NCBI GenBank assembly: GCA_963665525.1
Contig: OY762280.1
Span: forward strand, 705,451-769,450
From: Bacteroidales bacterium
Lineage (GTDB): Bacteria > Bacteroidota > Bacteroidia > Bacteroidales > UBA12077
Length of the DNA: 64,000 nt
Reading direction: 5' to 3'
Part shown: one piece after another, positions 4,979 to 57,855 of the stretch
Numbering within the stretch: position 1 is the stretch's first letter
How the letters are laid out: the number at the start of each line of letters is the position of its first letter
Position numbers and translations under genes: made by a program
The notes under the pieces: model-generated
Database searches by the model: none
Told to the model about the DNA's origin: nothing
What the model saw: the letters and a program-made list of their open reading frames with translations, nothing else

Positions 4979-5133
4979 GCCTTTATATTTCTAGCAAAGA
5001 TGCCAAGACGCAAAGAAATTGTAAACTTTTTCTTATGGTATTTACAATCTGAATTTCTTTGGTTTTGTTATTTCTATGCATTAATTCAATTTTTTTGATC
5101 TGTTATCTATAAATCTAAATTCTAATATCTAAA

Positions 5134-6183: not shown

Positions 6184-6210
6184 TGTATGATGTTTTTGTA
6201 TGGTTGTATT

Positions 6211-11089: not shown

Positions 11090-11090
11090 T

Positions 11091-23536: not shown

Positions 23537-23553
23537 TGGCATTTTTATTGGCA
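23537..23553 (+). promoter_or_regulatory. Candidate sigma-54 -24/-12-like element upstream of FtsX permease 2
   Basis: TGGCATTTTTATTGGCA, 52 nt before the ATG. TGGCA is at -24. TTGGC stands in place of TTGC, so the GC is offset by 1 nt. Confidence 0.35.
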
Positions 23554-36569: not shown

Positions 36570-36713
36570 GCAAATGTTGAAAAATAAAATACTTGCTTAA
36601 ATTCATTGATATAATGGATCAACTTATTTGTATAATTAAGTCACATGTTTGTATAATATCTTTTTTTCATTTTTAGAAATATCTTTAATTTATGAGGTAT
36701 TAAAAAATAGAAA

Positions 36714-38432
36714 ATGGATTTACATAAATATTTTAGAAATACCTTTCTAATGATTATTTTAAGTTTAGTTAATCTTTTTAATCTGTTTGGTTTATCTAAC
36801 TCAGCAGGATTACAAGAAAATCAAGAGAAATCTGCTCCAGTAAAGATCTTTTACGGTTTAAATGAAAGTCATAGTAATGACTGGGCACAAATTGCAACTA
36901 ATGGAGAAGTGGGTATCGTCTATTTTAATGAGGTAAATAAGCTAATTTACAGGTCAATAAATCAGTCTGGGGAAAGCAATGAAGAAGTAATAACCACTGG
37001 AAATCATTTAGAGATTTCAGTTTTGTTATTCGATTTGAATTCAAGCCCTCATGTGTTTACTGCAAGCTCGAGTGATACAAAACAAATTATTACTCACTAC
37101 TTTAAGAATGAAAACAAAGATTGGATAGAAGAGCAAACTATTAGTTTTCAAAACGAAGGAGGAAAATTTATTTATGAGCTTTCTGCAGAAATTGGAAATG
37201 ATGGTTCTTTTCATTTACTTGCATTGAAAACCAGATCAAATCCAGACTCGGAAGACTATTACTATGCTTACCTCGATGCCCATTTATATTATATTACGAA
37301 TAGAGATAATAGGTGGGTAAAAGAATTAATTTGCAATTACGATATGATTTATACTGCTGATGAATATTCTAAGGCTTTAAATCGACAAGATATTGATATT
37401 GATGAGGATGGATTTGTTCATGTTGTATTTGGAGAGCAAATTGATGGTTCATCTTGGAGTTCACCTAGTAGATTACAGTACGTAACAAATAAAACTGGTA
37501 ATTGGGTAATCGAAACAGCATTTAACCCTAATTTAAGCTCAAGAGATGATGCGGGCTGGTTTCCATCATTGAAATTAGATCATAATAATAATCCAAATAT
37601 TGCTTGTACATATGTTAAAAGGTATGCTACAGGTTCGTCAATGAGTGCAAAGTTATACTATTTAAAACGATCTGGTAATTCACAATGGAGTTCAGAAATT
37701 GTTGTAGAATCAGATGATGGTTATTATGGAACAGATGGCAGAAGATTTTCAGGAGGATTAAATAGCTTACTTTTTGATAAAGAAAATAATCCTCATATTA
37801 TTTTTACAGATATAGCTTCTTCACATGCTGGCCGAAATTATTGGAATTTGGGAAATGTGAGGCATGCTACAAGAAGTTATAATAAATGGCAGACTGCAAA
37901 CATATATAGACAGCCGAATCCCGATAGTTATTACGACGCAAAAGAAATATACAGTATTTGCGGACTAAGTACTCAAGATTCTATTATAAATGTGGTTGTT
38001 CAAGAGTTAGATATTTCAAGTGTTAGTAATTATAGCTTTTTTATTAAGACTTTTAGATATAACTATTTTAATGATTTAATCGATACAATTACTGATGTTA
38101 CTAATAATACAGATACAGTTGCAACATTTAATAATATGAGTGATGAATTAGTTAAGAATACTTTTATAATGACTTATCCTAATCCTTTTAAAGATTTAAC
38201 AAATATAAAAGTGAATGTTCCAGAACCAACAATTATAAATCTTGATATTTATGATATAAATGGAAGAATAATAAAACATTTAGTTAACGATACCTATATT
38301 CGAGATGAAGATATATTTGAATGGAATGGCATTGATAATTCAGGAAATGAAACCATGGATGGAGTTTATTTTTGTGCTTTAACTACAGATGATAATATGT
38401 TTATAATTAAACGAATATTGCTAGTTAAATAG
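36714..38432 (+). CDS. Secreted repeat (beta-propeller-like) protein with T9SS C-terminal sorting domain
   Basis: 572 aa. N-terminal hydrophobic signal. A recurring blade-like unit (SSPHVFTASS, GSFHLLALK, GFVHVVFGEQ, NNPNIACTYV, NNPHIIFTDI, each followed by a W-containing strand). The last ~85 aa (YPNPFKDLTNIKVNV...DGVYFCALTTDDNMFIIKRILLVK) fit the T9SS CTD pattern. Confidence 0.6.
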   Translation: MDLHKYFRNTFLMIILSLVNLFNLFGLSNSAGLQENQEKSAPVKIFYGLNESHSNDWAQIATNGEVGIVYFNEVNKLIYRSINQSGESNEEVITTGNHLEISVLLFDLNSSPHVFTASSSDTKQIITHYFKNENKDWIEEQTISFQNEGGKFIYELSAEIGNDGSFHLLALKTRSNPDSEDYYYAYLDAHLYYITNRDNRWVKELICNYDMIYTADEYSKALNRQDIDIDEDGFVHVVFGEQIDGSSWSSPSRLQYVTNKTGNWVIETAFNPNLSSRDDAGWFPSLKLDHNNNPNIACTYVKRYATGSSMSAKLYYLKRSGNSQWSSEIVVESDDGYYGTDGRRFSGGLNSLLFDKENNPHIIFTDIASSHAGRNYWNLGNVRHATRSYNKWQTANIYRQPNPDSYYDAKEIYSICGLSTQDSIINVVVQELDISSVSNYSFFIKTFRYNYFNDLIDTITDVTNNTDTVATFNNMSDELVKNTFIMTYPNPFKDLTNIKVNVPEPTIINLDIYDINGRIIKHLVNDTYIRDEDIFEWNGIDNSGNETMDGVYFCALTTDDNMFIIKRILLVK

Positions 38433-38452
38433 TGTTTTTAAGGACTAAAATT

Positions 38453-38495
38453 ATGTCCGAAATTGTGCAAAAGCTGTTCAGTTTCGGGCATTTTT
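38453..38495 (+). terminator. Candidate intrinsic terminator after the T9SS cargo gene
   Basis: 10-bp stem ATGTCCGAAA (38453-38462) / TTTCGGGCAT (38482-38491) with one G-U pair and a 19-nt loop, followed by TTTTT. Confidence 0.5.
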
Positions 38496-38547
38496 CATTA
38501 TTCACAGATGTAAGTAAATGTCACATAATCAAGTGATAATAATATTG

Positions 38548-38564
38548 TGGCATAAAATGTGATA
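38548..38564 (+). promoter_or_regulatory. Candidate sigma-54 -24/-12-like element upstream of FtsX permease 5
   Basis: TGGCATAAAATGTGATA, 110 nt before the ATG. This is farther from the start than in the other five copies, and the -12 box is weak. Confidence 0.25.
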
Positions 38565-38657
38565 TTTCTAACTATTCAATAAGCGGGGAAATAAGAATAA
38601 AATACCTTAACAATATTATTAAGAATTAATTTGTCAATTAACCTAAAATAATGAATT

Positions 38658-41042
38658 ATGCTTAAAAACCTTTTTAAAACTGCTATAAGAAATATATTTA
38701 AGGACTTTGGTTATAGTAGTTTAAATATTCTTGGTTTAACACTTGGAATTGCCAGTGCCTTATTTTTAATTATTTATATTGCTGATGAAATTAGTTATGA
38801 TAAATACCACGAAAATGCTGAACGTATTTATCGAGTGGCATCACACATAACAGAAACCGATGATGAATTTACCTGGATTGTTGCTCAAGTTCCTTTTGCA
38901 CCTCAAGTTGTACAGGATTATCCAGAAGTTGAGCATTCGGTTCGTTTTATTGATAACGGGCGCGAATTATTTAAATACGAGGATAAAGAGTTTTATGAAG
39001 AGAGTTTCTTTTACACAGATTCTAACGTTTTTGATGTTTTTACATACGAATTTATCAAAGGTAATCCTGTTGATGCTTTAACTGAACCAAACAACATAGT
39101 TTTAACAGAAACAGTTGCCGCAAAATATTTTGGTAAAGAAGATCCAATAGGTAAATCATTAGTAAATAGGGATGATACTTATAAAGTAACAGGAGTAATT
39201 AAGGATGTTCCTAATAATTCTCACTTTCGTTTCGAAGGCTTAATGTCAAGAAGTAGTTTACCTCCGGATTTTGGAAATTCATGGGGAAATTTTGGAGTTT
39301 TTACTTATTTGCTTTTGCCCGAACATGTAGATTATAAGGTTTTTGAGAGTAAGATACAGGAAATGTATGGAAAATATATGGCCGAGATTTTTGAACGAAT
39401 GGGAATTAAAATAGAGTATGTATTAGATCCAATTACAGATATTCATTTAAAATCTACATATCAAGGAGAACCTGAACCAACAGGGAGTTATGCTTATGTA
39501 ATAATATTTGCAATTGTTGCTTTATTCTTAATACTAATTGCAGCTATGAATTATATGAATCTGGCCACAGCTCGATCTACCAAACGTGCTCGTGAGGTTG
39601 GTTTAAGAAAAGTGGTTGGTTCTCATCGAGGTAGTTTAATATTTCAGTTTTTAACTGAATCAACAGTTTTAACATTTATTTCATTGTTGCTGAGTATAAT
39701 ACTCTTAATTCTTTTGTTGCCATACTTTAATCAATTGGCAGGTAAATCATTTAATATTGATGTTTTATATAGTCCGGTAGCAATTATAAGTATTGTATCA
39801 GTAATTGTTGTCGTAGGTATAATTGGGGGAAGTTATCCTGCTTTTTATTTATCGAAATTTAACCCCGTTATTGTGTTTAAGGGAGAAGTAACAAAAGGAT
39901 CTTCAGGAAGCATGTTTAGAAAAGTTTTAGTTGTGATTCAGTTTACGATATCGGTTGCCATGATTGTATCAACTTTGGTTGTTTATAAACAATTGAATTA
40001 TTTAAAAACAAAAGATTTGGGTTATGATATGGATAACGTTGTTAGTCTTGAGTTTACAACTCGACAAATGGTTGATAAATATCCAGTGCTAAAACAAGCA
40101 TTACTCGAAAATCCGAATATAAAATATGTAGGTTCAACAGGGACAAGAGTAGGAGAAGGTTCTGGGAAAGTAATTCTGAATGTTGAGACAGAAGATGGTA
40201 TGCAAGAAAGAGGAATTAACCTGGCAAGTGTTGATCATGATTTTATTGAGGCATTAGGAATTACAATGAAAGAAGGGAGAGATTTCCAGGAAAACATGCC
40301 ATCTGATACTCTTCTGGGAGTTATTGTAAATGAAACCATGGCAAAACGCTTGAATTGGGAAAATCCAATAGGAAAAAGAGTTGAGATGGAAGGTAGAGGA
40401 GGTCAGGAATTTCTTAGAGCTACAGTTGTTGGTGTTATGAAAGATTTTCACCAAACAGGAATGTATAACGAAATAGAAACAATCTTATATTTTTATCGTG
40501 TTAATAACCGTTTGGTTTACATAAAACTTACCGACGCTTCAGTTCAGGAAACAATAAAATTTATTGAGAATGCCTGGAATGAAGTATTTCCTGAACAGCC
40601 ATTTGAATATTCGTTTTTATCGGATAGATTTAATGAACAGTTTGGTGCTGACGAAAAAAGGGGCTTTATTTTTACTTTATTTACTGTACTGGCAATATTG
40701 ATAGCATGTTTAGGCTTGTTTGGATTAGCTTCGTATACCGTTGAACAACGTACTAAGGAAATTGGAATCAGAAAAGTTGTTGGCGCTAGTGAAGGAACTG
40801 TAGTGAAGTTAATTTCTCGAGAATTTTTAATACTGGCAACGATTTCAATTCTAGTAGCATTCCCATTATCTTTTTATTTTATGCGCGACTGGTTACAACA
40901 ATTTGTGTATAGAACTAATTTAGGATTATTTGTGTTTATAATTGCGGGATTAATTACAATAACGATAACTTTTATAACAATTAGCTATCAGGCATGGAAA
41001 GCAGCAAATGCTAATCCTGCAGAGTCGTTACGGGTAGAATAA
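38658..41042 (+). CDS. MacB/FtsX-family permease 5, double FtsX module, no ATPase domain, no adjacent two-component system
   Basis: 794 aa. N-terminus LFKTAIRNIFKDFGYSSLNILGLTLGIASALFLIIYIADEISYDKYH, two TM1-loop-3TM halves, C-terminus NPAESLRVE. Confidence 0.85.
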   Translation: MLKNLFKTAIRNIFKDFGYSSLNILGLTLGIASALFLIIYIADEISYDKYHENAERIYRVASHITETDDEFTWIVAQVPFAPQVVQDYPEVEHSVRFIDNGRELFKYEDKEFYEESFFYTDSNVFDVFTYEFIKGNPVDALTEPNNIVLTETVAAKYFGKEDPIGKSLVNRDDTYKVTGVIKDVPNNSHFRFEGLMSRSSLPPDFGNSWGNFGVFTYLLLPEHVDYKVFESKIQEMYGKYMAEIFERMGIKIEYVLDPITDIHLKSTYQGEPEPTGSYAYVIIFAIVALFLILIAAMNYMNLATARSTKRAREVGLRKVVGSHRGSLIFQFLTESTVLTFISLLLSIILLILLLPYFNQLAGKSFNIDVLYSPVAIISIVSVIVVVGIIGGSYPAFYLSKFNPVIVFKGEVTKGSSGSMFRKVLVVIQFTISVAMIVSTLVVYKQLNYLKTKDLGYDMDNVVSLEFTTRQMVDKYPVLKQALLENPNIKYVGSTGTRVGEGSGKVILNVETEDGMQERGINLASVDHDFIEALGITMKEGRDFQENMPSDTLLGVIVNETMAKRLNWENPIGKRVEMEGRGGQEFLRATVVGVMKDFHQTGMYNEIETILYFYRVNNRLVYIKLTDASVQETIKFIENAWNEVFPEQPFEYSFLSDRFNEQFGADEKRGFIFTLFTVLAILIACLGLFGLASYTVEQRTKEIGIRKVVGASEGTVVKLISREFLILATISILVAFPLSFYFMRDWLQQFVYRTNLGLFVFIIAGLITITITFITISYQAWKAANANPAESLRVE

Positions 41043-41070
41043 GACCTTGAAAATAATCATATTTAAAAAA

Positions 41071-41102
41071 CAAATTCCCGCTTTCTGTGGGAATTTGTTT
41101 TT
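41071..41102 (+). terminator. Rho-independent terminator after FtsX permease 5
   Basis: 9-bp stem CAAATTCCC (41071-41079) / GGGAATTTG (41089-41097) with a 9-nt loop, followed by TTTTT and preceded by an A-run. Confidence 0.75.
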
Positions 41103-41215
41103 ATATAATATAGTCAATAACTTACCTTTTGTCGGATATAAAAACCTCTCGAAGAAAAAACATTTTATTCAATTTAATAAATTAAAATCTTGCAGAAACC
41201 TAACTTACAAATCTA

Positions 41216-42898
41216 ATGAAAACAAAAATCTATTTATTATTAACATGGCTATTCATATCAACAAGATTATTTGCACAAACATTTTATCAGGATTTATGGC
41301 AAGGAAATACAGAAAATGTTGAAGAATATATCAAGAATAATCCTGATATAGTTCATGATGTGAATCAATGGGGTTTGTCACCAATTCAAGTAGTAATTTC
41401 CTGGGGGCATAGAAATCATAAAGAAATAATAGATAAACTTTTGATAAATGGTGCTGATATCAATCAGCTTTCTAATAACGGGCGAACGGTTATCCATTTT
41501 GCAGCAGAGTCTGCTTCCATTGACTTATTAAAATACTTAATTGATAAAGGTGCTGATATTTCAATTCTAGATGATGATAACAATAGCGCATTATACTATG
41601 CTGTATTAAGGAAAGATAATCAGATTATTGACTTAGTTAATAATGAAACTATTCAACTACCTGCTACTGGAGAAAAAGGACGAAAGTTATTGTTAAGTGC
41701 AGTGTCATGTGGTAATGAAAAAATAGTGAATGCTCTAATTCAAAATGGGGCCGATATTTATGTAAAAAGAGCAGATGGGGCAACGCTTTTACATTGTGCA
41801 GCAGAAGGGAATATGATAAATTTGTTAGATCAATTGATTCGAGAAGGTTTCGATATTAATGCACAAAACAAATACTATTATACTCCTTTGCACTTAGCGG
41901 TTAAGAACAAGAATATTGGTGCTATAAAGAAACTGATTAAGAAAGGAGCTAATATTGAGAGTGAAACTAATACCGGACTAAAACCATATCATATAGCAAT
42001 TGAAAATGAAAATAAGGATATAGTAGAAATATTGGTAAACTCTGGAGCCAAAACTGATCAATTCGAATTTAATATTGTAGGAGAATATTTTGGACAAAAA
42101 CTGCCAGGAAGTATACCTGAAATTTTTGCTCCGGGAATTGTATCTACTATGGATGGTTTTGAGTTTGCCGGGGTATTTACTCCCGATAATAAAGAATTTT
42201 TCTTTACACAGCGAGGTTTGGGATTTGGGCAAAGAATCAGATATTTAAAAGTTAAAGATGGAAAATGGCAACGGCCAGATTTTGCACCTTTTACATATGA
42301 TTGTTTTGAGTTTGAACCTGGAATATCTCCTGATGGAGAGGCCATTTTCTATGGATCCATGAGACCATTGCCAGGTTCTGATGAGATAAACCGAAGTATA
42401 TTCATCTGGAAAGTAACAAAAAATGAAGGTTGGAAAAATCCGCAATTGATTGGTGGTGAGATGATGTATGTAAATGTTGCAGCTAATGGCAACATTTATA
42501 CTACTAGCCTCAAAAGAGATGGCGATAAGGGGATAATAAAAAGAGAATTGCATAAGAATGAATATAGCGATTTCATCAATTTAGGTGATAGTATAAATTT
42601 TATGTTGGGTACAGCTCATCCTTATATTGCTCCTGATGAAAGCTATGTAATTTTCGATGCACAACCTGAAGAATATGGTGAAAATGGAGCTTTGTTTATT
42701 AGTTTTAAAAAGAATAATGGAACCTGGACCAAAGCAAAAGCTTTTGGAGATGAGATTAATTTTGGCCAGGTCATGACCGCGTGGGTATCGCACGATCAGA
42801 AATATATGTTCTTTCATTCTACAGTAGATGGTTTTGGTGATATATATTGGGTTGATGCTTCAGTAATTCAAAAAATGAAAAAAGAAATATTGAAATGA
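41216..42898 (+). CDS. Periplasmic/secreted ankyrin-repeat protein fused to a PD40 (TolB-like beta-propeller) domain
   Basis: 560 aa. Signal peptide (LLLTWLFISTRLFAQ). About 7 ANK repeats (GRTVIHFAAESASIDLLKYLIDKGADI, GATLLHCAAEGNMINLLDQLIREGFDIN, YTPLHLAVKNKNIGAIKKLIKKGANI...). C-terminal ~275 aa are homologous to the three downstream PD40 proteins (GQKLPGSIPEIFAPGIVST, HPYIAPDESYVIFD, DIYWVDASVIQKMKK). Confidence 0.7.
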   Translation: MKTKIYLLLTWLFISTRLFAQTFYQDLWQGNTENVEEYIKNNPDIVHDVNQWGLSPIQVVISWGHRNHKEIIDKLLINGADINQLSNNGRTVIHFAAESASIDLLKYLIDKGADISILDDDNNSALYYAVLRKDNQIIDLVNNETIQLPATGEKGRKLLLSAVSCGNEKIVNALIQNGADIYVKRADGATLLHCAAEGNMINLLDQLIREGFDINAQNKYYYTPLHLAVKNKNIGAIKKLIKKGANIESETNTGLKPYHIAIENENKDIVEILVNSGAKTDQFEFNIVGEYFGQKLPGSIPEIFAPGIVSTMDGFEFAGVFTPDNKEFFFTQRGLGFGQRIRYLKVKDGKWQRPDFAPFTYDCFEFEPGISPDGEAIFYGSMRPLPGSDEINRSIFIWKVTKNEGWKNPQLIGGEMMYVNVAANGNIYTTSLKRDGDKGIIKRELHKNEYSDFINLGDSINFMLGTAHPYIAPDESYVIFDAQPEEYGENGALFISFKKNNGTWTKAKAFGDEINFGQVMTAWVSHDQKYMFFHSTVDGFGDIYWVDASVIQKMKKEILK

Positions 42899-43866
42899 GA
42901 AGAATTAGAATTTTAGTATTAACAGTTTTAGTTTCAGTCAATTTTGCTATAGGACAAACAAATGTAGATTTCTTTGGTCAAAAGCCAATTGGTGAGAATG
43001 CGGTTATATTTGCTCCTGCAATACTATCAACAATCCATCACGAGCATAGTAGATTAGAGTTTTCAAAAGATGGGAATGAAATATTTTGGGCTGTTATACC
43101 AATTGATACAGTTAAAAGAAATAAGCATCAGAATGCGTATTTAATTGATCAGCAAAAAATATGGCATATTTATAAAACAAAACAAGGTTGGTCAGAGCCT
43201 AGGGTTCTTGAATTTACTGCAGATTCGAAAAGTGGAGTGCCGACTTTATTGGTAGATCAGCAGTCTTTATTCTTTTACCAAACAGATCCTAATACTCCCA
43301 AAGATGTTCGTCCTAAAAAATCAAACTTACTATCCGTTAAAAGGAAGGGTGAAAATTGGGGTAAGCCTGAAATTATAGAAAATATGATACCTAAAGTAGA
43401 AGGAAAGGCTACTATGGCATTCACAATTGCAGATAATGGAAATGTATATTACGACTTGGGTGGACCTGATGAACATGGAAACTGGATTTGGAAAATATAT
43501 TTCAGAGAATTTAAGGATGGGAAATATCAAGATCCGATCATGCTTAAAAATAAAATTGATATTTCAATGGTAAACTGGTGCCCGTTTGTTGCACCTGATG
43601 AGAGCTATCTGATATTTTCTTCGCATAGGTATGGAGGTTATGGAAATGGCGATTTGTACATTTGTTTCAAAGGTAAAAATAATGGCTGGACTGAACCAAT
43701 TAATATGGGGCAGAGCGTAAATACATCTTCACAAGAACGATTCCCTTCGGTAAGTCCTGATGGTAAATACTTATTTTTTGCACGTCATCAGTATAAAACC
43801 TTTAATGATTATTTCTGGATAGATGCTTCAATAATTGAAAAATTAAAAAAACAAATATATAAATGA
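42895..43866 (+). CDS. Periplasmic PD40 (TolB-like beta-propeller repeat) protein, paralog 2
   Basis: 323 aa. Signal peptide. PD40-type motifs FVAPDESYLIFSSHRYGGYGNGDLYICF and SVSPDGKYLFFARH. ATGA start/stop overlap with the upstream gene. Confidence 0.65.
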   Translation: MRRIRILVLTVLVSVNFAIGQTNVDFFGQKPIGENAVIFAPAILSTIHHEHSRLEFSKDGNEIFWAVIPIDTVKRNKHQNAYLIDQQKIWHIYKTKQGWSEPRVLEFTADSKSGVPTLLVDQQSLFFYQTDPNTPKDVRPKKSNLLSVKRKGENWGKPEIIENMIPKVEGKATMAFTIADNGNVYYDLGGPDEHGNWIWKIYFREFKDGKYQDPIMLKNKIDISMVNWCPFVAPDESYLIFSSHRYGGYGNGDLYICFKGKNNGWTEPINMGQSVNTSSQERFPSVSPDGKYLFFARHQYKTFNDYFWIDASIIEKLKKQIYK

Positions 43867-44834
43867 AAACAATTAAAGTTCTAATAAGCTTATTAATCTT
43901 AAGTTGTAGTCTAGTCTATGCTCAAAATAATAATGATTATTTGGGTCAAAAATTTCCAGGAAGTACGCCTCAATTATTTGCACCGGGGATTGTTTCATCG
44001 GGTAATCACGATATGGATATTACTATTTCCCCAGATGGGAATGAGATTTTTTTTACAAGATGTGGAATAAATTGGTATGCTGAAATACTTTATGTCCAAC
44101 GAACTGAAAATGGTTGGCAAGATCCTGTTGTTTTACCTTGGACAATAACTCGTAATAATAATTATCCATTTGTATCTCCTGATGGAAATTATTTGTTATT
44201 TGAATCTAAGGTAAAGTCCAAAGAAGGAGATGGCGATAATCGTGAAGTATTTTATTGTAAAAAAACCAAGAGAGGATGGAGTAAAGCAGTTATTTTCGAT
44301 AATGGATTAAACACAGAATATGCAGAGATGTACACGAGTATTTCATCGAATGGTACCATATATTTTTGTGCCAATTATCCAGAAAGTAATGGTAGGTTTG
44401 ATATTTACAAGTTCAATCCCGATAAAGATACAAAAGCAGTTAATTTGGGTGATTCTATTAATAATGAGTCCAATGAATTTCATCCATATATTGCCCCTGA
44501 TGAAAGCTATATTATATTTGATGCATCGCGAGAAGAAGGATTTGGAAGTAATGATTTATACATTAGCTTTAAGAAATCAGATGGAACTTGGTCAAAAGCT
44601 GTTAATATTGGCGAATCTATAAACACTCCTTATTCAGATATGCGCCCATTTGTTACTTACGATGGTAAGTATTTGTTTTTTTCAAGTACCAGAACGTTAA
44701 AAGAAGATATGCCTAATAATGAAATAGATTATGAAATCTTTATGAACAAGATTAATTCTTCAGGCAATGGAAGCCAGGATATTTATTGGGTCGATGCAAA
44801 AATTATTGACGAACTTAAAAAGAAAGTATTATAA
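43863..44834 (+). CDS. Periplasmic PD40 (TolB-like beta-propeller repeat) protein, paralog 3
   Basis: 323 aa. Signal peptide. ISPDGNEIFFTR, FVSPDGNYLLFES, YIAPDESYIIFDASREEGFGSNDLYISF, DIYWVDAKIIDELKKK. ATGA overlap with the upstream gene. Confidence 0.65.
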   Translation: MKTIKVLISLLILSCSLVYAQNNNDYLGQKFPGSTPQLFAPGIVSSGNHDMDITISPDGNEIFFTRCGINWYAEILYVQRTENGWQDPVVLPWTITRNNNYPFVSPDGNYLLFESKVKSKEGDGDNREVFYCKKTKRGWSKAVIFDNGLNTEYAEMYTSISSNGTIYFCANYPESNGRFDIYKFNPDKDTKAVNLGDSINNESNEFHPYIAPDESYIIFDASREEGFGSNDLYISFKKSDGTWSKAVNIGESINTPYSDMRPFVTYDGKYLFFSSTRTLKEDMPNNEIDYEIFMNKINSSGNGSQDIYWVDAKIIDELKKKVL

Positions 44835-45763
44835 TGAGAAAAATAGTAATATTTATTCTAGTTGGATTTTCTTTTATAAATATTAATGCTCAAACAAATA
44901 TTGATTATTGTGGGCAAAAAGTGCCTGGAAAAATACCAGAGCTATTTGCCAAGGGAATTGTTTCTTCGAATAATCAGGAACATAGTTTACTTTGTATTTC
45001 GCAAGATGGAACAGAAATGTGGTGGAGTATTTGGGACTTACCCTATTCACCTGAAAGTGTGCAAAAAATATATTTTATAAAAAAAGAAGATGGGAAATGG
45101 CAACAGGCACAGTTAGCTCCATTTAGTGGAAAATACAGGGATGGAGGACCATTTTTAAGTTATGATGGGAATAAGTTATTCTTTTACTCTAGAAGACCTA
45201 TTATGCATGATTCTTTAGTAAACGATAATGATATTTGGTATATTAATCGAACTAAAGATGGATGGAGTGAGCCTGTAAATGCTGGTAATATTATAAATAC
45301 TGATTTTGTTGAGGCTAATCCTGTGCTGGTAAAGAATAACAATCTGTATTTTACGTCAAATCGAGATGGTAATCCTGATATTTATTTATCAAAGTTTATT
45401 AATGGAGATTATACCAAACCTGTAAAACTGAGCGAAAATATCAATACTAGAGATGCCCGCGAAATGTTCTTTACCGTTTCTCCTGATGAAAGCTTTATCA
45501 TATTTACTCGTGATGACAGAAAATTTTCAACTGAAGGAGAGTTATTAGGAGGCGACAGGAATTTAATGATCAGTTTTAAAAATGAAGATGGAAGTTGGGG
45601 ATATGCAAAAGATATGGGGAGTATTTTTAATGATAAAAAGGCTCGATTTCCAAGTTTATCACCCGATGGTAAGTATTTGTTTTTTACTCGTTATACTGAA
45701 GGTAATGATGAGGACTTTTATTGGGTTGATGCTAACATCATTAGAACCCTGAAGACAGAGTAG
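44834..45763 (+). CDS. Periplasmic PD40 (TolB-like beta-propeller repeat) protein, paralog 4
   Basis: 309 aa. Signal peptide. GQKVPGKIPELFAKGIVSS, TVSPDESFIIFTRDD, SLSPDGKYLFFTRY, FYWVDANIIRTLK. TAATG 1-nt overlap with the upstream gene. Confidence 0.65.
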   Translation: MRKIVIFILVGFSFININAQTNIDYCGQKVPGKIPELFAKGIVSSNNQEHSLLCISQDGTEMWWSIWDLPYSPESVQKIYFIKKEDGKWQQAQLAPFSGKYRDGGPFLSYDGNKLFFYSRRPIMHDSLVNDNDIWYINRTKDGWSEPVNAGNIINTDFVEANPVLVKNNNLYFTSNRDGNPDIYLSKFINGDYTKPVKLSENINTRDAREMFFTVSPDESFIIFTRDDRKFSTEGELLGGDRNLMISFKNEDGSWGYAKDMGSIFNDKKARFPSLSPDGKYLFFTRYTEGNDEDFYWVDANIIRTLKTE

Positions 45764-45853
45764 TACATAATTGAACATTTATGTCCAAAAACGTACACTT
45801 TTAAAAGATTTCAAACATTTATAATTAACTTAAAGTCAATCAAATAGATCTTT

Positions 45854-45870
45854 TGGAATATAGTTTGATT
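45854..45870 (+). promoter_or_regulatory. Candidate sigma-54 -24/-12-like element upstream of FtsX permease 6
   Basis: TGGAATATAGTTTGATT, 49 nt before the ATG. GG at -24, and TTGA in place of TTGC at -12. Confidence 0.3.
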
Positions 45871-45902
45871 AATGAAAATTATAACCATTTAATAACTATC
45901 AT

Positions 45903-48317
45903 ATGTTTAAACATAATTTAATAATTGCATTGAGGAATATTGTTAAGTATTGGAATTATTCAATAATTAACATTGGAGGTTTAGCAATAGGTTTAGCTAG
46001 TTTTATTTTTATCGTACTTTATATCGATGATGAATTAAAATACGATCAACATCACGAAAATGCAGAAAGTATTTATCGTGTTAACAGGTTGTATAATAGC
46101 AATGATGTAGATGAAGATGCTGCAACTTTATCATTTCCAGCAGGGCCAACACTTGTTTTAGATTATCCAAATATTGTAAAAAATCAAGTCCGGTTTTTTA
46201 ATCAACTAAGAAACCAATGGTTTTTTGATTATCAAAAAAATGAGGATGAAATCATTCGTTTTAACGAACCACGATTTATGTTAGCTGATTCAACGGTATT
46301 TGATGTATTTACATTTCCGTTTATTGAGGGAGATCCGGAAACAGCTTTAGATAACCCTGGAACAATTGTTGTTACAGAATCAACTGCTAAAAGATATTTT
46401 GGTGATGAACCAGCAATAGGAAAAGTATTACGTGTTGAGGAAGGTTTAAATTTTGAAATAACTGGTGTTATAGAAGATTTACCTACTCAATCGCATTTTA
46501 AAATTGATATTTTAGGTTCTTTAAATACATTTCGTCAGTTTAATAGGAATGGACAGTTCCCTCAGACCTGGATATGGAATCCTTGTTGGACTTATGTTCA
46601 ACTACACGATGGCATAGATCCTGGAATGCTTGACGAAAGAATGCCAGAATTTTATCAAAATCATTACAATGATCTGCAAGATGCTGATGTAACTTTATAT
46701 TTACAGGCACTTACAGATATTCATCTTAAATCTCATCATGTATATGAAATGAGGCCTAATAGTAATATCGTTTATGTTTATATATTGTCTATTGTTGCAG
46801 CTATCATTTTAATTCTGGCATGCATAAATTTCATGAATCTGGCAACTGCCAGTTCTGCCGGAAGAGCAAAAGAGATTGGGGTTAAAAAGGTTTTCGGAAG
46901 TCATAAAAAAAGTTTGGTTTTTCAGTTTCTTGGTGAAGCTGTTGTACAAAGCTTTGTTGCTATGTTAATTGCCATTATCATTGTAGAGCTTTTACTTCCG
47001 GGATATAATAATTTTACCGGGAAAAATATTACTCCTTCCTTTTTGGTTGAGCTAAAAATACTTGGTTTCATATTAGGTGTTGCTTTTGTTGTAGGACTGA
47101 TTTCTGGTATTTATCCTGCATTTATTCTTTCTTCATTTAAACCTTTAAAAGTGCTTAAAGGAGCATTAAAAAGTGGAGCAAAATCAGGAACAGCCCGAAA
47201 AGTGTTGGTTATTGTACAGTTTTCTATTTCAATAAGTTTAATTATAGGAAGTTTGGTAGTCTTTTCTCAACTAAAGTTCTTACGAAATGCGGAGCTCGGG
47301 TTTAAAAAAGATCATATTATTAACATTAGAAGAGTAGGGCCTTTGTTTAATAACTATGAAGCTTTCCGACAAGAACTATTAAGTCATAAAGATATTGATT
47401 TTGTTACCGGTGCAGAAGATTACTTAGGAATAAACCATAATACTCGTGATTATGAGGTTGAAGGACTTACTCCGGGACAAAGGTTTTATATTCCAACTTT
47501 TATGGTAGATTGGGATTTTATAGAGGCATTTGATATAAAGGTAGTTGAAGGACGAGCATTCTCTCGTGATTTCCCTAGCGATACTATCAATGCAGTAATG
47601 ATCAATGAAACCATGGCGAAAGATATGGGATGGTCGAATGCTGAAGCTATTGGTAAAAGAATTACTTCTAGAGATGGCGATGAGAGAGTAATTGGAGTTT
47701 ATAAAGATTTTAATGCCATGTCGTTACATCGTCCGGTGAATAAGTTTATTCTGGATATGTTCCGAAGACCAGATGTTTTTGCACGCGTAATATCAGTTCG
47801 GTTTAGCTCAAATAATTATCAAGAAGTGGTTAAGCATATTGAGAAAACATGGAATGATTTTGTTCCTACCAGGCCGTTCGAATATCAGTTTTTCGATCAA
47901 CAGTTAGATGATCTTTATAAAGATGAGTTGAAATTTGGTAGATTCTCTGTAATGTTAACTATTCTGGCTATTATAATTGCAAGTATGGGACTTATTGGGT
48001 TAACATCATTTTTGGCAGAACAACGAACAAAAGAAATTGGTATTAGAAGAGCTTTAGGGTCTTCAACAGGTGGAATTATAGGATTAATGGCAAAAGAGTT
48101 TTTATGGTTACTACTTGTTGCTAATGCTATTTCATGGCCAATAACTTACTATTTTACAACAAACTGGTTGGAGAGTTATTCAAAACATATAAATACTAAC
48201 TGGGGGATTTATGTTCTTTCTGGTATTCTTACCATGTTTATAGCAATGTCAATAATTACATACAGAGCATATAAAACAGCATTATTGAATCCTGCACAAA
48301 CTTTACGTTACGAATAA
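45903..48317 (+). CDS. MacB/FtsX-family permease 6, double FtsX module, no ATPase domain, no adjacent two-component system
   Basis: 804 aa. N-terminus LIIALRNIVKYWNYSIINIGGLAIGLASFIFIVLYIDDELKYDQHH, two TM1-loop-3TM halves, C-terminus NPAQTLRYE. Confidence 0.85.
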   Translation: MFKHNLIIALRNIVKYWNYSIINIGGLAIGLASFIFIVLYIDDELKYDQHHENAESIYRVNRLYNSNDVDEDAATLSFPAGPTLVLDYPNIVKNQVRFFNQLRNQWFFDYQKNEDEIIRFNEPRFMLADSTVFDVFTFPFIEGDPETALDNPGTIVVTESTAKRYFGDEPAIGKVLRVEEGLNFEITGVIEDLPTQSHFKIDILGSLNTFRQFNRNGQFPQTWIWNPCWTYVQLHDGIDPGMLDERMPEFYQNHYNDLQDADVTLYLQALTDIHLKSHHVYEMRPNSNIVYVYILSIVAAIILILACINFMNLATASSAGRAKEIGVKKVFGSHKKSLVFQFLGEAVVQSFVAMLIAIIIVELLLPGYNNFTGKNITPSFLVELKILGFILGVAFVVGLISGIYPAFILSSFKPLKVLKGALKSGAKSGTARKVLVIVQFSISISLIIGSLVVFSQLKFLRNAELGFKKDHIINIRRVGPLFNNYEAFRQELLSHKDIDFVTGAEDYLGINHNTRDYEVEGLTPGQRFYIPTFMVDWDFIEAFDIKVVEGRAFSRDFPSDTINAVMINETMAKDMGWSNAEAIGKRITSRDGDERVIGVYKDFNAMSLHRPVNKFILDMFRRPDVFARVISVRFSSNNYQEVVKHIEKTWNDFVPTRPFEYQFFDQQLDDLYKDELKFGRFSVMLTILAIIIASMGLIGLTSFLAEQRTKEIGIRRALGSSTGGIIGLMAKEFLWLLLVANAISWPITYYFTTNWLESYSKHINTNWGIYVLSGILTMFIAMSIITYRAYKTALLNPAQTLRYE

Positions 48318-48339
48318 ATATACGATAGTATAGAGAAAT

Positions 48340-48389
48340 AGCCTTTAATCGATAAGTTTTACCGCTTAAAGATTAAGGGCTTTTCTTTT
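48340..48389 (+). terminator. Candidate terminator after FtsX permease 6 (long loop)
   Basis: Stem AGCCTTTAATC (48340-48350) / GATTAAGGGCT (48371-48381) with one mismatch and a 20-nt loop, followed by TTTTCTTTT. Confidence 0.4.
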
Positions 48390-48432
48390 GCTTTTGATAA
48401 ATTACTTTTGAAATAAAACAATAGAAAAAAGA

Positions 48433-49956
48433 ATGTTAAAAAACTTGATAGTTATATTACTTCTTGTTCTTAGTCCATGTTTGTACGGACAGAACATCAT
48501 TGAAAAAGCAAATTTAATTGCAGGAAAATACCATGTGGGGTTTCAGTTGAAAGAATACAAAGATTATTCGCGAACAGCAATTTTGAATAGTAAAGATGTT
48601 ACTCTTTTGGCAGAAGAGCAAGCTCGAACAATCAGGATGTATATGTGGTATCCGGCCAAAAGTAATCAACAAGAACCAAATACCGTAAAAGACTTTTTTA
48701 CGAAACAAGTTGAGGACTTTGGAAAATTAGATCAAAATAAATTAGAAGAGATAATTTATTATGCTCCTCAGTTTAATCGAATTCCAAAATCGAAAGTAGA
48801 TAAGCTCTTGATGCAAGAGTGCGCATCAGTTGATAATGTTTCATTTGCTGAAGGTAAATTCCCGGTTATTATTTTAGGGCAAGGTTACTACTACGAATCG
48901 CCAATATCGCATTTGGTTTTGTGTGAATATTTGGCCAGTCATGGATATATCGTGATGACTTGTCCATTGTTTGGAACAAATTCGAAAGCTGTTGAGCTTA
49001 ATATGATCGACTTTGAAACTCAAATTCGAGATCTCGAATTTCTGATGTCAAAAGCTAATGAATTACAAAATGCCGATTTAAATAGTATAGCGGCGCTTGG
49101 TTTCGATTTGGGAGCCATGTCGGCTACTTTAGTACAAATGCGTAATTCGAATATAAAAGCACTTATAACTTACGATGGTGGAATTATGTTTGAGCATAAT
49201 ACAACACAATTATTGAATCCTTCTCCATATTACCAACCTGAAAAATTGGATGTGCCAACTATGATATTTACAAGAACAATTGAAGGTAATATACAAATGG
49301 GACTAAAGGAGGATAGCACCATATTTCATCATTCGCCTTATGCAAAAAAATATTTAGTTCGTACCGAAGGAATGAAACATAACTATTATACTTCGCTACC
49401 TGTATTGGGAATTGAAAGTCGTCCATCACCTGAACTTGCTATTAAAGCATATCCTATAATTTGTTCTTATACATTAAATTTTTTCGATTTTTATTTAAAA
49501 AATAATGAAAAAGGATTGCAGTTTATTAAAGATGATCCAACAAGATTTAATGAAGATGGGGTTCATATATCTGTTGAAGAAATTGAGGCAAAAGAAAAGC
49601 CTATTAATTTAAGCATGTTAGAATATGCAATATTGAATGGAGAAGTCGATGATGGAATAAGTCTATACCACAAGGCAAGATCTAAGAATCAGATTATTTC
49701 TGAAGAAAAGCTTAACAGTTTAGCGTATCTTTTTTTATATAATTACGGACGTCCTCACGATGCCATATCAATTTTTAAACTAATAATTAGTGAATATCCA
49801 CAATCGGCTAATGCTTACGATAGCTTAGGAGAGGCTTACCTTTACACAAAAGATTATACCAAGGCCAAAGAAAATTATCAAAAATCATTGGATTTAAATC
49901 CTAAAAATGCCAATGCAAAAAGAATTATTAATCAACTATCAAAATTAAACATATAA
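48433..49956 (+). CDS. Secreted alpha/beta-hydrolase-fold protein (dienelactone hydrolase / PAF-acetylhydrolase-like) with C-terminal TPR repeats
   Basis: 507 aa. Signal peptide. RMYMWYPA and VIILGQGYYYES blocks typical of this fold. The nucleophile-elbow position reads GFDLGA, not GxSxG. C-terminal TPR (ANAYDSLGEAYLYTKDYTKAKENYQKSLDLNPKNANA). Confidence 0.5.
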   Translation: MLKNLIVILLLVLSPCLYGQNIIEKANLIAGKYHVGFQLKEYKDYSRTAILNSKDVTLLAEEQARTIRMYMWYPAKSNQQEPNTVKDFFTKQVEDFGKLDQNKLEEIIYYAPQFNRIPKSKVDKLLMQECASVDNVSFAEGKFPVIILGQGYYYESPISHLVLCEYLASHGYIVMTCPLFGTNSKAVELNMIDFETQIRDLEFLMSKANELQNADLNSIAALGFDLGAMSATLVQMRNSNIKALITYDGGIMFEHNTTQLLNPSPYYQPEKLDVPTMIFTRTIEGNIQMGLKEDSTIFHHSPYAKKYLVRTEGMKHNYYTSLPVLGIESRPSPELAIKAYPIICSYTLNFFDFYLKNNEKGLQFIKDDPTRFNEDGVHISVEEIEAKEKPINLSMLEYAILNGEVDDGISLYHKARSKNQIISEEKLNSLAYLFLYNYGRPHDAISIFKLIISEYPQSANAYDSLGEAYLYTKDYTKAKENYQKSLDLNPKNANAKRIINQLSKLNI

Positions 49957-49967
49957 GAACTTTTAAG

Positions 49968-51122
49968 ATGAAAACTTTGAATACGCTAATTGTTATGTTG
50001 TTATTTATCAACTCTTTCGGGCAGCCAGAAGATTTGAATAATAATACTTTTATTAAATCGGATCAGGATTTTGAGCCTGCCAGAACAAATACGGTTGGAT
50101 TAGCTGATTTAGATTCAGACGGTGATTTAGATGCTGTTTTCGCCAATATGGGTTTTAACGATTCTCGAATTTTGCTAAATGATGGGAACGGGAATTTTAC
50201 ATATACAAAACAGAAGTTAACGCAGCAAGGTCATGGTACAGGTATAGGAGATATAGATGCTGATGGCGACCTAGATTTGATAATTCCATGTGCAGGATTT
50301 GGCTCAAAAGATAATTATAGGCAATTATCTACAAAAATTTATTTGAACAATGGAGAAGGTTATTTTACAGATTCTGGGCAGAGCCTGGGAGATTCTTTAG
50401 AGTCTGGTAATGGAGTTAATTTAATTGATATTGATTCGGATAATGACTTAGATGCTCATATTTATTATTATTCAACAGAAACGAATTCTCATTATCATCG
50501 AATTTATTTGAATGATGGTAAAGGTAAATTTACTCTTAGTAAGATTTCCTTTAAAGAAGGATATAACATAACTTGGGGAGATTTGGATAATGATTCAGAT
50601 GTAGATGCCTTGGTAAGATACTATGGAAAAGGAATATTATTATTTACTAATAATGGTAATGCAGAATTTACCGAATCCTGGATTATAAAAGATACTAGTA
50701 TTTATCGTGGAGGTACTGGTTTATGCGATTTTGATGATGATAAAGATATAGATATTATAGTGACACGAGGAACAAGAAAGAATCCTGAATCAACAGTAGT
50801 GTTAATAAACCAGGGAGATGGTATTTTTAAAAAGATGAACAAGGAATTGCCAGTTTTATCTGCTGCAGCTAAATTTTTATTTGCAGATCTTAATAATGAT
50901 GGAAATATGGATACATATATTAGAGGATTTTTTAGGCCTAATCTAATTTGGATGGGTGATGGGAAAGGTAATTTTATTGAAACTGAAATAAAATTATGTG
51001 ATAAAGAACCAACCGGAACTTGTGGCTTAGGCGATTTGGATAAAGATGGTGATATAGACATTTTTAATGCCTTTTTTGGGAATGGATCAAATAGTGTTTA
51101 TTTTAATCAAACAATAAAATAA
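49968..51122 (+). CDS. Secreted FG-GAP/VCBS-repeat (integrin-alpha-like 7-bladed propeller) protein
   Basis: 384 aa. Signal peptide. Seven Ca-binding-type DxDxDGxxD loops: DLDSDGDLD, DIDADGDLD, DIDSDNDLD, DLDNDSDVD, DFDDDKDID, DLNNDGNMD, DLDKDGDID. Confidence 0.75.
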   Translation: MKTLNTLIVMLLFINSFGQPEDLNNNTFIKSDQDFEPARTNTVGLADLDSDGDLDAVFANMGFNDSRILLNDGNGNFTYTKQKLTQQGHGTGIGDIDADGDLDLIIPCAGFGSKDNYRQLSTKIYLNNGEGYFTDSGQSLGDSLESGNGVNLIDIDSDNDLDAHIYYYSTETNSHYHRIYLNDGKGKFTLSKISFKEGYNITWGDLDNDSDVDALVRYYGKGILLFTNNGNAEFTESWIIKDTSIYRGGTGLCDFDDDKDIDIIVTRGTRKNPESTVVLINQGDGIFKKMNKELPVLSAAAKFLFADLNNDGNMDTYIRGFFRPNLIWMGDGKGNFIETEIKLCDKEPTGTCGLGDLDKDGDIDIFNAFFGNGSNSVYFNQTIK

Positions 51123-51128
51123 AAAGAC

Positions 51129-51941
51129 ATGAAACAACAGATTAGAAGATGGTTAACGATTAGCTATTTATTAATAGCATGTACTCCAATTTCTTATAGC
51201 AATCATCCGGTAAATGATAATTCATCGGGACAAGAAATAAAAGTAAGCATCATATATGACAACTATGATTTTAAACCAGGCTTAGAATCAGATTGGGGAT
51301 TTTCGTGTTTAATTGAAGGATGTGAGAAAACTATTCTTTTTGATACAGGTGCAAGAGGAAGAATCTTTAAACAAAATTTTGATGCTCTGAATATTGATGC
51401 AAATAAAGTTGATTATGTAGTTATATCTCACGATCATTATGATCATGTGGATGGCTTAGAAGTATTTATTGAAATGAATAAAGAAGCTTCAGTTTATATG
51501 CTGCATGAATTTTCTAATAAGGTAAAGAATATTGTTGAAGACTTGGGAGGTAAAATTGTATATGAGCCTGAAATTACAGAAATATGCAAAAATGTTTACT
51601 TGAGTGGCGAACTTGGGAATAGAATAAAAGAACAATCATTAGCTATTGATACCCCCAATGGTTTAGTTATTATAACAGGTTGTTCGCATCCGGGAATTAT
51701 TGAGATATTAAAACATTTTAAAATAGAATTGACTAAAGAAATTTATATGGTTTTTGGAGGTTTTCACTTAATGCAAAAGAATAAAACCGAAATAGATCAA
51801 ATTATTACAGAAATGAAAGCCCTTGGAGTTCAAAAGTGTGGAGCCACACATTGTACAGGTAAGAAACAAATAGAAATGTTTAAAGAATCTTTTGGCGCCG
51901 ATTATGTCCAAATGGGTGTTGGTAATTTGGTTGAATTATAA
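51129..51941 (+). CDS. MBL-fold metallo-hydrolase (MJ0301-like subfamily) with signal/lipoprotein N-terminus
   Basis: 270 aa. HxHxDH motif in VVISHDHYDHVDGL. The upstream block IIYDNYDF...DWGFSCLIEG..TILFDTGA is typical of this MBL subgroup. Confidence 0.7.
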   Translation: MKQQIRRWLTISYLLIACTPISYSNHPVNDNSSGQEIKVSIIYDNYDFKPGLESDWGFSCLIEGCEKTILFDTGARGRIFKQNFDALNIDANKVDYVVISHDHYDHVDGLEVFIEMNKEASVYMLHEFSNKVKNIVEDLGGKIVYEPEITEICKNVYLSGELGNRIKEQSLAIDTPNGLVIITGCSHPGIIEILKHFKIELTKEIYMVFGGFHLMQKNKTEIDQIITEMKALGVQKCGATHCTGKKQIEMFKESFGADYVQMGVGNLVEL

Positions 51942-51950
51942 ATAGATCGT

Positions 51951-53125: not shown

Positions 53126-53163
53126 TTTAGGGATCATTAACAGAGTTAAAAATGATCCCTAAA
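53126..53163 (+). promoter_or_regulatory. 13-bp perfect hairpin/palindrome whose 3' arm contains the AraC-family gene start codon
   Basis: TTTAGGGATCATT (53126-53138), a 12-nt loop, then AATGATCCCTAAA (53151-53163). The ATG is at 53152-53154. No T-run follows on the plus strand, so it is not a canonical terminator. Confidence 0.5.
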
Positions 53164-57839: not shown

Positions 57840-57855
57840 ATTTTTAGCGATTTAA

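Follow-up and report, generated by a model that had tools for sequence, protein, structure and literature searches.

What do four exported and mutually related PD40 proteins do between two permeases that have no ATPase gene beside them? The question is raised by a stretch of 64,000 nucleotides from a Bacteroidales bacterium (GenBank assembly GCA_963665525.1, contig OY762280.1, positions 705,451 to 769,450 of the forward strand; hereafter the window), in which a plus-strand operon of four genes, here called A, B, C and D (41216-45763), is located between two ADOP-like double-FtsX permeases, FtsX5 and FtsX6. The answer that we favour, tentatively and with somewhat less than even confidence, is that A-D are non-catalytic periplasmic binding or scaffold modules, made coordinately, probably co-expressed with FtsX6, and active in one envelope process with the exported hydrolases encoded nearby. 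The position of the operon between FtsX permeases is a local arrangement and not the sign of a general partnership.

Gene A (41216-42898) encodes a protein of 560 aa, with a predicted signal peptide (residues 1-20), an ankyrin region (residues ~30-277) and a PD40 region that consists of an N-terminal motif and a propeller (residues ~286-560). Genes B (42895-43866, 323 aa), C (43863-44834, 323 aa) and D (44834-45763, 309 aa) encode predicted exported stand-alone five-bladed PD40 propellers, of which B is the most divergent paralogue. All four open reading frames (ORFs) are on the plus strand, and consecutive genes overlap by 4, 4 and 1 nt (junctions aATGA for A/B, aATGA for B/C and TAATG for C/D), precisely as described in the initial annotation of this DNA, a reading made from the sequence without database searches. 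The other ORFs of the region, on the opposite strand as well as a 91-aa ORF with a TTG start at 41047, are accounted for by the long coding frames. Comparison with a 96%-identical relative (locus L001) yielded ratios of nonsynonymous to synonymous substitution rates (dN/dS) of 0.18 for A, 0.22 for C and 0.20 for D, which indicates that these three are under purifying selection and are real, selected genes; gene B differs from its counterpart in L001 by 2 nucleotides only.

The initial annotation regarded the four products as paralogous PD40 proteins and suggested hidden Markov model (HMM) searches, which bear this out. B, C and D match Pfam PD40 (PF07676) with scores of 39.2, 79.9 (in 4 stretches) and 66.7 bits, all above the gathering cut-off of 20.9. 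In the Pfam scan gene A reveals ankyrin matches only (Ank_2, 126 bits; Ank, 116 bits; multiple repeats above the gathering score), and its PD40 assignment comes from homology to B-D (E-value 10-33 to 10-55) and from the precomputed PF07676 matches of its orthologues. Over their entire length B, C and D align with one another and with the final 280 residues of A at 30-36% identity (31-36% for the propeller of A against B-D; BLASTP E-values 10-33 to 10-55), a similarity far above chance by which we regard the four as paralogues, and this level of identity suggests old paralogues with no recent duplication. The sequence blocks that had been quoted as shared by all four products were found in A-D, with some divergence, as in GQKPIGENAVIFAPAILS of B and TVSPDESFIIF of D. 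The roughly seven N-terminal ankyrin repeats that had been noticed in A, the only gene of the operon with such repeats, are likewise confirmed by the Pfam scores and by the AlphaFold2 (AF2) model described below.

Signal peptides had been proposed for all four products, and our analysis agrees, with export judged from a heuristic reading of the N-termini (charge, Kyte-Doolittle hydropathy, cleavage motif) and not from a dedicated signal-peptide predictor. Each of A-D exhibits an n-region with a charge of +2 or +3, a hydrophobic core (10-residue Kyte-Doolittle mean of 2.4-3.1) and an A/G-Q cleavage motif (LFA|Q, AIG|Q, VYA|Q and INA|Q) that places Gln at position +1. Gln at this position is known in Bacteroidetes as the Q-rule for substrates of signal peptidase I (PMC5837995, PMC10653852), with which A-D agree. 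The product of gene C has a poor lipobox (ILSC) with Cys at position 15; we read it as a signal peptidase I substrate despite this residue, and it may be lipidated. Sorting domains of type IX secretion systems (T9SS) were identified in two other proteins of the window (36714-38432 and 59510-62764), in agreement with the Bacteroidota origin of the DNA, and none was found in A-D, for which the periplasm is therefore the default location.

The fold was predicted with AF2 for C (from 60 homologues: mean pLDDT 92.9, pTM 0.89) and for A (from 50 homologues: pLDDT 93.1, pTM 0.89). Assignment of secondary structure with DSSP revealed five strand groups in the model of C, and eight helix pairs followed by five strand groups in that of A. 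The eight helix pairs form a helical solenoid and fit ~7-8 ankyrin repeats. A defined orientation between the ankyrin and propeller domains is in line with the high pTM of A. A blade profile of 58 positions, derived from the family alignment, found exactly five contiguous units in each of A-D; since the blade boundaries were set from C, this count is partly circular for B-D, whereas A lies outside that alignment. We therefore predict A-D to be five-bladed PD40 propellers, as compared with the six blades of TolB.

A Foldseek search of PDB with the model of C reported TolB propellers as the top matches (E-value 3*10-12 to 10-10, TMq ~0.5), with a probability of 1.00 for them and for other propellers; those of S9 peptidases, hydrazine synthase, lectins and tricorn came next. 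The model of A retrieved mostly DARPins and other ankyrin structures (E-value 10-16). The structure-prediction check that had been suggested for the propeller assignment thus came out in its favour. The description of the proteins as "TolB-like" holds insofar as TolB is the best structural match, and fails in the number of blades, a difference that agrees with the modest TM-scores. At the level of sequence, a single query against PDB gave only spurious matches to antibodies, and a profile of 60 sequences gave nothing at E-value 0.01 or below.

The C-terminal propeller of TolB (1c5k, 2hqs, 2w8b) is a periplasmic PD40 propeller like those of A-D, and its non-catalytic, protein-binding role is the likeness that we infer for them. 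TolB differs in its six blades and its N-terminal domain; no Pfam match to TolB_N was found in A-D, whose mature forms have the family motif at their very start, and tol and pal genes are missing from the annotated ORFs of the window. The scores against TIGR02800 (TolB) are 24.7 bits for C and 30.0 bits for D, with no match for A and B, far from the cut-off of 343. The best curated sequence matches come from NCBIfam, namely the PorE (NF052230) and CHU_0125 OmpA-like (NF053607) families of the same phylum, in the propeller region only (E-value 10-16 to 3*10-28; scores of 59-99 bits against cut-offs of 600 and 620, which places A-D outside both families). The propeller of PorE was described as five-bladed (PMC7192894) and contributes to the binding of PorP (PMC12773672). 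However, PorE (PG1058) and CHU_0125 are lipoproteins of ~640-670 aa that carry TPR, CRD and peptidoglycan-binding OmpA_C domains, none of which was found by Pfam in A-D, and they differ from A-D also in that the latter possess N- and C-terminal family motifs of their own. The substrate-gating propellers of S9 peptidases (acylaminoacyl peptidase, DPP4) and of tricorn share PD40-type blades with A-D (Foldseek E-value 10-6 to 3*10-8), faint matches to Pfam Tricorn_N and Tricorn_2nd occur in homologues, and some family members are fused to peptidases; yet the propellers of these enzymes have 6-8 blades and are covalently joined to a catalytic domain, while those of A-D are stand-alone or fused to ankyrin repeats. 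A split, tricorn-like partnership with an S41 peptidase was also considered and rejected, as no homologue of the S41 gene of the window is present in 80 loci of the PD40 family.

The family to which A-D belong is large. A search with C gave more than 7,100 significant matches among 8,000 candidates scored, and a profile search of 1.84 billion cluster representatives retrieved 46,629 of them at E-value 10-3 or below, 29,303 at 10-10 or below and 8,068 at 10-30 or below; the last figure, counted in clusters at 50% identity, is the one that we use for the size of the family. Matches in genomes were obtained for Bacteroidota, Zixibacteria, Gemmatimonadota, KSB1, and Aminicenantes and other Acidobacteriota, and further for Ignavibacteria, Fidelibacterota, Thermotogae, Verrucomicrobia, Phycisphaerae and Lysobacterales. 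The members exhibit a conserved blade motif IN(S/T)...E..P..SPDG..L.F.S.R....D(I/L)Y.....G.W..P..L, preceded by an N-terminal signature Y.GQK.PG..PE.FAPGI.S (in its looser form YxGQKxPGxxPxxFAPGxxS) and followed by a C-terminal closure DIYWVDA...I..LK, predicted to form a strand and then a helix. As judged from the alignment of 60 homologues, and not from mapping on a structure, the invariant and near-invariant columns appear to be those of the blade motif and of the closure motifs at both termini. The family alignment showed no further group of conserved polar residues hinting at catalysis, and neither a catalytic domain by Pfam nor an enzyme family by Pfam or NCBIfam was identified in A-D.

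The presence of ankyrin repeats in an exported protein had been called uncommon in bacteria. This does not hold for the architecture of A, since a search with A gave 984 significant matches, mostly with the same Ank-PD40 architecture and distributed over at least six phyla; a literature search found no paper on Ank-PD40 proteins. Among 80 genome loci of the family, 15 contain the Ank-PD40 fusion, in 6 others the PD40 genes have an unfused ankyrin gene nearby, and 17 contain tandem arrays of 2-9 paralogues. Arrays of up to nine PD40 paralogues were seen at L034 (1-10891), L041, L047 and L086 (4391-11909). The separate ankyrin proteins of L006, L048 and L019 possess signal-peptide-like N-termini. 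Two of these, L006 and L048, are loci of metagenome-assembled genomes in which four PD40 genes are accompanied by a separate 285-aa ankyrin and DUF3471 protein with such an N-terminus, an arrangement that is the unfused counterpart of the A-D operon. DUF3471 usually accompanies PF00144 enzymes.

Other fusion partners in the family are metallo-beta-lactamase (MBL), TPR, extracytoplasmic function (ECF) sigma regions, peptidase domains, BNR and the T9SS sorting domain, and duplicated propellers of 600-690 aa also occur. Such a repertoire would be the behaviour of a promiscuous binding module. Examples were found in homologues P0173, P0153, P0167, P0210 and P0200, with the architectures MBL-Ank-PD40, MBL-PD40, TPR-PD40, ECF sigma region 2/4-PD40 and PD40 with a T9SS sorting domain; the ECF-PD40 fusion would suggest a role as an extracytoplasmic sensor.

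The initial annotation proposed that repeated propellers next to permeases with large periplasmic domains might capture substrates for, or be partners of, the FtsX proteins, and pointed to co-occurrence in other genomes as a check. We examined 80 distant loci of the PD40 family for a permease within 10 kb and by gene rank (forward test), and reciprocally 80 metagenomic loci anchored on FtsX6 homologues of 35-57% identity (1.02 Mb, 2.45 permeases per locus); the resulting counts are raw, with no genome-wide background density, and regional enrichment is possible. An ADOP-type permease was found within 10 kb in 14 of the PD40 loci, while the remaining 66 have none; it is the immediate neighbour in 6, including loci of Gemmatimonadota and of several Bacteroidota families. 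The share of permeases among the genes is flat at ~4% (3-7% at ranks 1-5 and 7, zero at rank 6) and does not peak at adjacency. Co-residence in islands of permease-rich genomes would be expected to give such a pattern, and operonic partnership would not. In the reciprocal test a single FtsX6-anchored locus out of 80 contains a PD40-family gene, and the locus of the closest FtsX6 homologue (57% identity) contains none. Because of the flat forward profile and the reciprocal result, an obligate or general partnership between PD40 proteins and these permeases is excluded, while a lineage-specific functional link is possible. The initial annotation had named the absence of statistical co-occurrence as grounds for abandoning its proposal, and this outcome comes close to that. 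Directly adjacent to two of the FtsX6 homologues we observed a gene of ~235 aa (L092, 9252-9971; L090, 12436-13140) whose size fits a MacB-type ATPase; judged by size only, such a neighbour would fit an ATPase partner and bears on whether the permease subfamily of FtsX6 is truly "orphan".

The order FtsX5, operon, FtsX6 is retained in the closest relative, L001, whose C is 96% identical. There, a 17-bp deletion at 10972-11884 (corresponding to 44834-45763 of the window) splits D into ORFs of 183 and 126 aa, and the broken gene is either a pseudogene or an assembly error. Nucleotide identity between L001 and the region 34206-51122 of the window varies from 81.5% for the gene of an alpha/beta-hydrolase-TPR protein to 89-90% for FtsX5 and FtsX6 and 99.8-99.9% for B and for an FG-GAP gene. 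Such a mosaic points to recent recombination or gene conversion in the island. In L085, where the orthologue of A is 61% identical, an FtsX5 orthologue, a 17-bp gap, a single Ank-PD40 gene, a 143-bp gap and an FtsX6 orthologue follow one another, so that the permease pair is retained without B, C and D. Beyond these two loci the link weakens: L087 (68%) contains A, an unrelated PD40 paralogue and an orthologue of D (70%), with no orthologue of B, no FtsX neighbour and 564 bp of non-coding DNA upstream; L172 (48%) contains PD40, esterase-TPR and Ank-PD40 genes with no FtsX neighbour; no permease is present on the available sequence of the P0125 contig (47%) and of L170 (44%); and in L002 separate Ank, PD40 and PD40 genes lie among hydrolases with no permease within 10 kb.

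Hydrolases recur around the family. Among the immediate neighbours (n = 137) the most common were PF00144 beta-lactamase-like proteins (6), TPR proteins (5), HTH_3 regulators (4), and amidohydrolases, esterases and S33 hydrolases (3 each); FtsX permeases were counted separately, 6 out of 143. Esterase-TPR genes are located beside PD40 paralogues in L089, L172 and L048, a hydrolase-TPR protein related to PETase and chlorophyllase together with an FG-GAP protein in L086, an MBL gene in a JGI contig, and a hydrolase-TPR-SGL gene in L002. In the window, the corresponding genes form a plus-strand run downstream of FtsX6 (48433-53093), identified by Pfam as alpha/beta-hydrolase-TPR (48433), FG-GAP (49968), MBL-fold (51129) and esterase-TPR (51951) proteins, all with signal-peptide-like N-termini except the MBL-fold protein. 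Homologues of the alpha/beta-hydrolase-TPR and esterase-TPR proteins were found in 10/80 PD40-anchored loci, compared with 3/80 permease-anchored ones. The association of the family with hydrolases is therefore at least as strong as that with permeases, and neither is tight.

FtsX5 (38658-41042, plus strand, 794 aa) and FtsX6 (45903-48317, plus strand, 804 aa) are two of six ADOP-like permeases in the window, all on the plus strand, with starts at 18305, 23589, 28939, 34206, 38658 and 45903. Each comprises two MacB_PCD and two FtsX domains (Pfam) and none has an adjacent gene for an ABC ATPase (the nearest ABC_tran genes, at 11091-11999 and 57856-58740, adjoin other genes), so that the description of the operon as flanked by orphan FtsX permeases on both sides was correct. 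Their scores against TIGR03434 (ADOP) of 263-298 bits (298 for FtsX5) are below the 622-bit cut-off, and we therefore call them ADOP-like and not curated members of that family. As had been noticed, FtsX5 is followed by a terminator hairpin (41066-41102, plus strand; 16-bp stem, 5-nt loop, an A run before and a T run after), whose folding energy of -21.5 kcal/mol (z = -9.3, 0/200 shuffles as stable) was obtained from direct RNA folding; a terminator scan missed it and gave only weak intragenic sites at a chance rate. The hairpin is kept in L001 and absent in L085, where the gap measures 17 bp. No stable hairpin was found in the 139-nt spacer between D and FtsX6 (z = -0.23), while FtsX6 is followed by a strong hairpin and a T-rich run (48319-48399, plus strand; -29.1 kcal/mol, z = -5.5, 0/200 shuffles as stable) that is likely the end of the transcription unit. 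The simplest reading is a single unit A-B-C-D-FtsX6 with an optional internal promoter of FtsX6.

The promoter that had been proposed before FtsX6 corresponds to a candidate -24/-12 (sigma-54-type) element, TGGAATATAGTTTGAT, on the plus strand at 45854-45869. The same pattern, (T)GGNAT-N4-T-NN-G, occurs 37-110 nt upstream of 5/6 permease genes, with a shifted copy at the sixth (sites at 18245, 28895, 34170, 38549 and 45855, and at 23537 with a shift of 1 nt), and it is kept upstream of the FtsX6 orthologue in L085 (9343-9358) as TGGAATGTGGTTTGAT. The -12 GC of the motif departs from the canonical form (in place of TTGC the -12 half often reads TTGAT or TGGCA), and as the motif was derived from the same permease sites we treat it as a tentative sigma-54 candidate only. 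Window-wide, the relaxed motif gave 14 matches against 17 expected, i.e. no over-representation, and the canonical TGGCAC-N5-TTGC, with one mismatch allowed, gave 2, at chance level and neither near the operon. Control of FtsX-like permeases by sigma-54 was proposed computationally for Bacteroidia (PMC12316311). Four repeats of a module were observed at 15452-36569, each with a histidine kinase and a sigma-54 (NtrC-type) regulator on the minus strand, divergent from a plus-strand permease; the permeases at 38658 and 45903 are without such a pair. As a general feature of the permeases this pairing was rejected, since only 3/80 permease-anchored metagenome loci contain it, which makes it lineage-specific.

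Further genes of the window were noted as well. Between FtsX4 and FtsX5 the 572-aa protein with the T9SS sorting domain (36714-38432) exhibits no other Pfam domain, and homologues of it occur in 3/80 PD40-anchored loci. Further downstream on the strand of the operon lies an AraC/GyrI-like regulator (53152-54084), followed on the minus strand (54219-58740) by an ABC ATPase gene that adjoins a 1206-aa protein with ABC-2 membrane and peptidase M1 regions; at the left edge of the window (1901-7728, minus strand) there is an RND efflux operon with an AcrB-type pump, a HlyD-type adaptor and an outer-membrane factor. Together, the RND operon, the permease array and the AraC/GyrI-like regulator lend the region an efflux or detoxification flavour.

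How, then, might A-D act? If they are binding modules, they would be soluble non-catalytic periplasmic proteins that recognise a protein, peptide or envelope ligand, as do the propellers of TolB and PorE, with the ankyrin solenoid of A as a second protein-binding surface. Translational coupling would lead to coordinated and roughly stoichiometric production, and the products could act either as a hetero-oligomer or as parallel binders of differing specificity. The family would then be a mobile accessory module that travelled mostly with exported serine or metallo-hydrolases (esterase-TPR, alpha/beta-hydrolase-TPR, MBL and PF00144 beta-lactamase-like proteins) and sometimes with ADOP-type permeases, and that in the lineage of the window was placed inside an ADOP-permease array carrying sigma-54 and two-component pairs. 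Given its position inside the array and its probable transcription with FtsX6, the products would likely be made together with that permease and with the downstream exported hydrolases. Several points weigh against this picture. The binding role is read from the fold, the conservation pattern and the domain partners, and is an inference only; the family has no characterised member, and no solved structure matches it by sequence even with a profile. Co-transcription of A-D with FtsX6 is deduced solely from the lack of a hairpin between D and FtsX6, and no promoter of the operon was identified, with neither a -24/-12-like motif nor a Bacteroidetes -7 box (TAnnTTTG) upstream of A. Finally, the immediate neighbours are heterogeneous (238 Pfam families among 137 neighbours, the commonest with only 6), so that there is no dominant class of partners.

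The operon invites comparison with EnvC/FtsEX, LolA/LolCDE and MacA/MacB, in which exported proteins are encoded beside a permease with large periplasmic domains, and A-D could in the same manner be dedicated partners of FtsX5 and FtsX6, docking on their periplasmic MacB_PCD domains to deliver or receive a substrate or to be switched mechanically. Permeases of the MacB/FtsX family act via periplasmic partners. The gene order kept in L001 and L085 (with gaps of 17 and 143 bp), the terminators that bracket A-D together with FtsX6, the missing hairpin between D and FtsX6, and the permeases adjacent in 6/80 and within 10 kb in 14/80 distant loci all speak for such a role, and to this extent the original proposal is supported, though only locally. 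However, the gene linkage fades beyond the close relatives: 66/80 loci have no permease within 10 kb, the share of permeases is flat by gene rank, PD40 genes are found in only one of 80 FtsX6-anchored loci and not at the 57%-identical homologue, the sequence available around the orthologues of A with 68%, 48%, 47% and 44% identity reveals no FtsX neighbour, Ank, PD40 and PD40 genes occur without FtsX in L002, and B-D are absent from the permease pair of L085. Moreover, EnvC (a coiled coil with LytM), LolA (a half barrel) and MacA (a membrane-fusion protein) have no relation in sequence or fold to A-D, and we regard dedicated partnership as rather unlikely. A broader variant, in which the ADOP permeases without ATPase would, in some Bacteroidota, Gemmatimonadota and Aminicenantes, have their missing periplasmic adaptors in Ank-PD40 and PD40 proteins that couple the movement of MacB_PCD domains to exported esterases or hydrolases, strikes us as highly improbable; if true, it would amount to an FtsEX-EnvC-like control of hydrolases built from unrelated parts, and the loose linkage would mean that the adaptors act in trans on many paralogous permeases.

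A-D might also be periplasmic inhibitors or immunity-like proteins against nearby or competitor-delivered hydrolases, with different paralogues covering different enzymes. Ankyrin and propeller proteins are known inhibitor scaffolds, tandem arrays of diverged paralogues are common (up to nine), the family recurs beside esterases, MBL-fold and beta-lactamase-like genes, and its gene content changes fast (A only in L085, A with an unrelated paralogue and D in L087, A-B-C-D in the window, D broken in L001). Against this, among the annotated ORFs of the window no genes for type VI secretion, contact-dependent inhibition or Rhs adjoin the operon, most of the neighbouring hydrolases possess signal-peptide-like N-termini of their own and resemble ordinary exported enzymes, a one-to-one pairing of PD40 and hydrolase genes was not seen, and dN/dS values of ~0.2 correspond to ordinary purifying selection; we consider this explanation improbable. 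Much the same low likelihood is assigned to the possibility that the propellers are enzymes themselves (lactonase, esterase, cyclase or glycosidase), as in other five- and six-bladed families: there are weak Foldseek matches to a GH43 arabinofuranosidase (five-bladed, TM-score 0.45) and to a putative neuraminidase, and SGL/lactonase-type propeller genes are found among the neighbours, but the best structural matches, TolB and the gating domains of S9 peptidases and tricorn, are propellers without catalytic function, the conserved columns fall on the repeated structural motif of PD40, Pfam and NCBIfam detect no enzyme family, and an accessory role is suggested by the fusion of family members to catalytic domains of other kinds (MBL, peptidases). 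Finally, A-D could be envelope tethers similar to TolB or PorE, which would bind the T9SS or a lipoprotein of the outer membrane and connect it with the inner membrane or the cell wall. That TolB and PorE/CHU_0125 propellers are the best matches in PDB and NCBIfam, respectively, and that the genome encodes T9SS cargo (sorting domains at 36714-38432 and 59510-62764) would fit such a role, which the remaining data make doubtful to a similar degree: the scores are far below the cut-offs (25-30 against 343 for TolB, 59-99 against 600 and 620 for PorE and CHU_0125), A-D lack the N-terminal domain of TolB and the TPR, CRD and OmpA_C domains, no tolQRA-pal or por genes are located beside the operon, and a single housekeeping tether is hard to square with four to nine paralogues at a locus and with clusters in the thousands. 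We thus return to non-catalytic binding or scaffold modules as the reading to be preferred for A-D.

The domain type, the fold and the generic annotation of these proteins ("PD40 domain-containing" or "TolB family protein") are already known, while the specific family to which they belong is uncharacterised. The operon is a clean example of this family of exported PD40 propellers, which comprises at least 8,000 clusters at 50% identity, and the descriptors defined here (five blades, closure motifs, frequent fusion to ankyrin repeats, tandem arrays and a neighbourhood of exported hydrolases) provide a handle for annotation and a concrete test set. The idea of a connection with ADOP is limited by the finding that the "orphan" permeases of this type do not have PD40 proteins as their general partners. 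These descriptors are useful, if unsurprising to a specialist, and they leave the current understanding standing; their value for the family is that of groundwork for its annotation and for hypotheses about its function.

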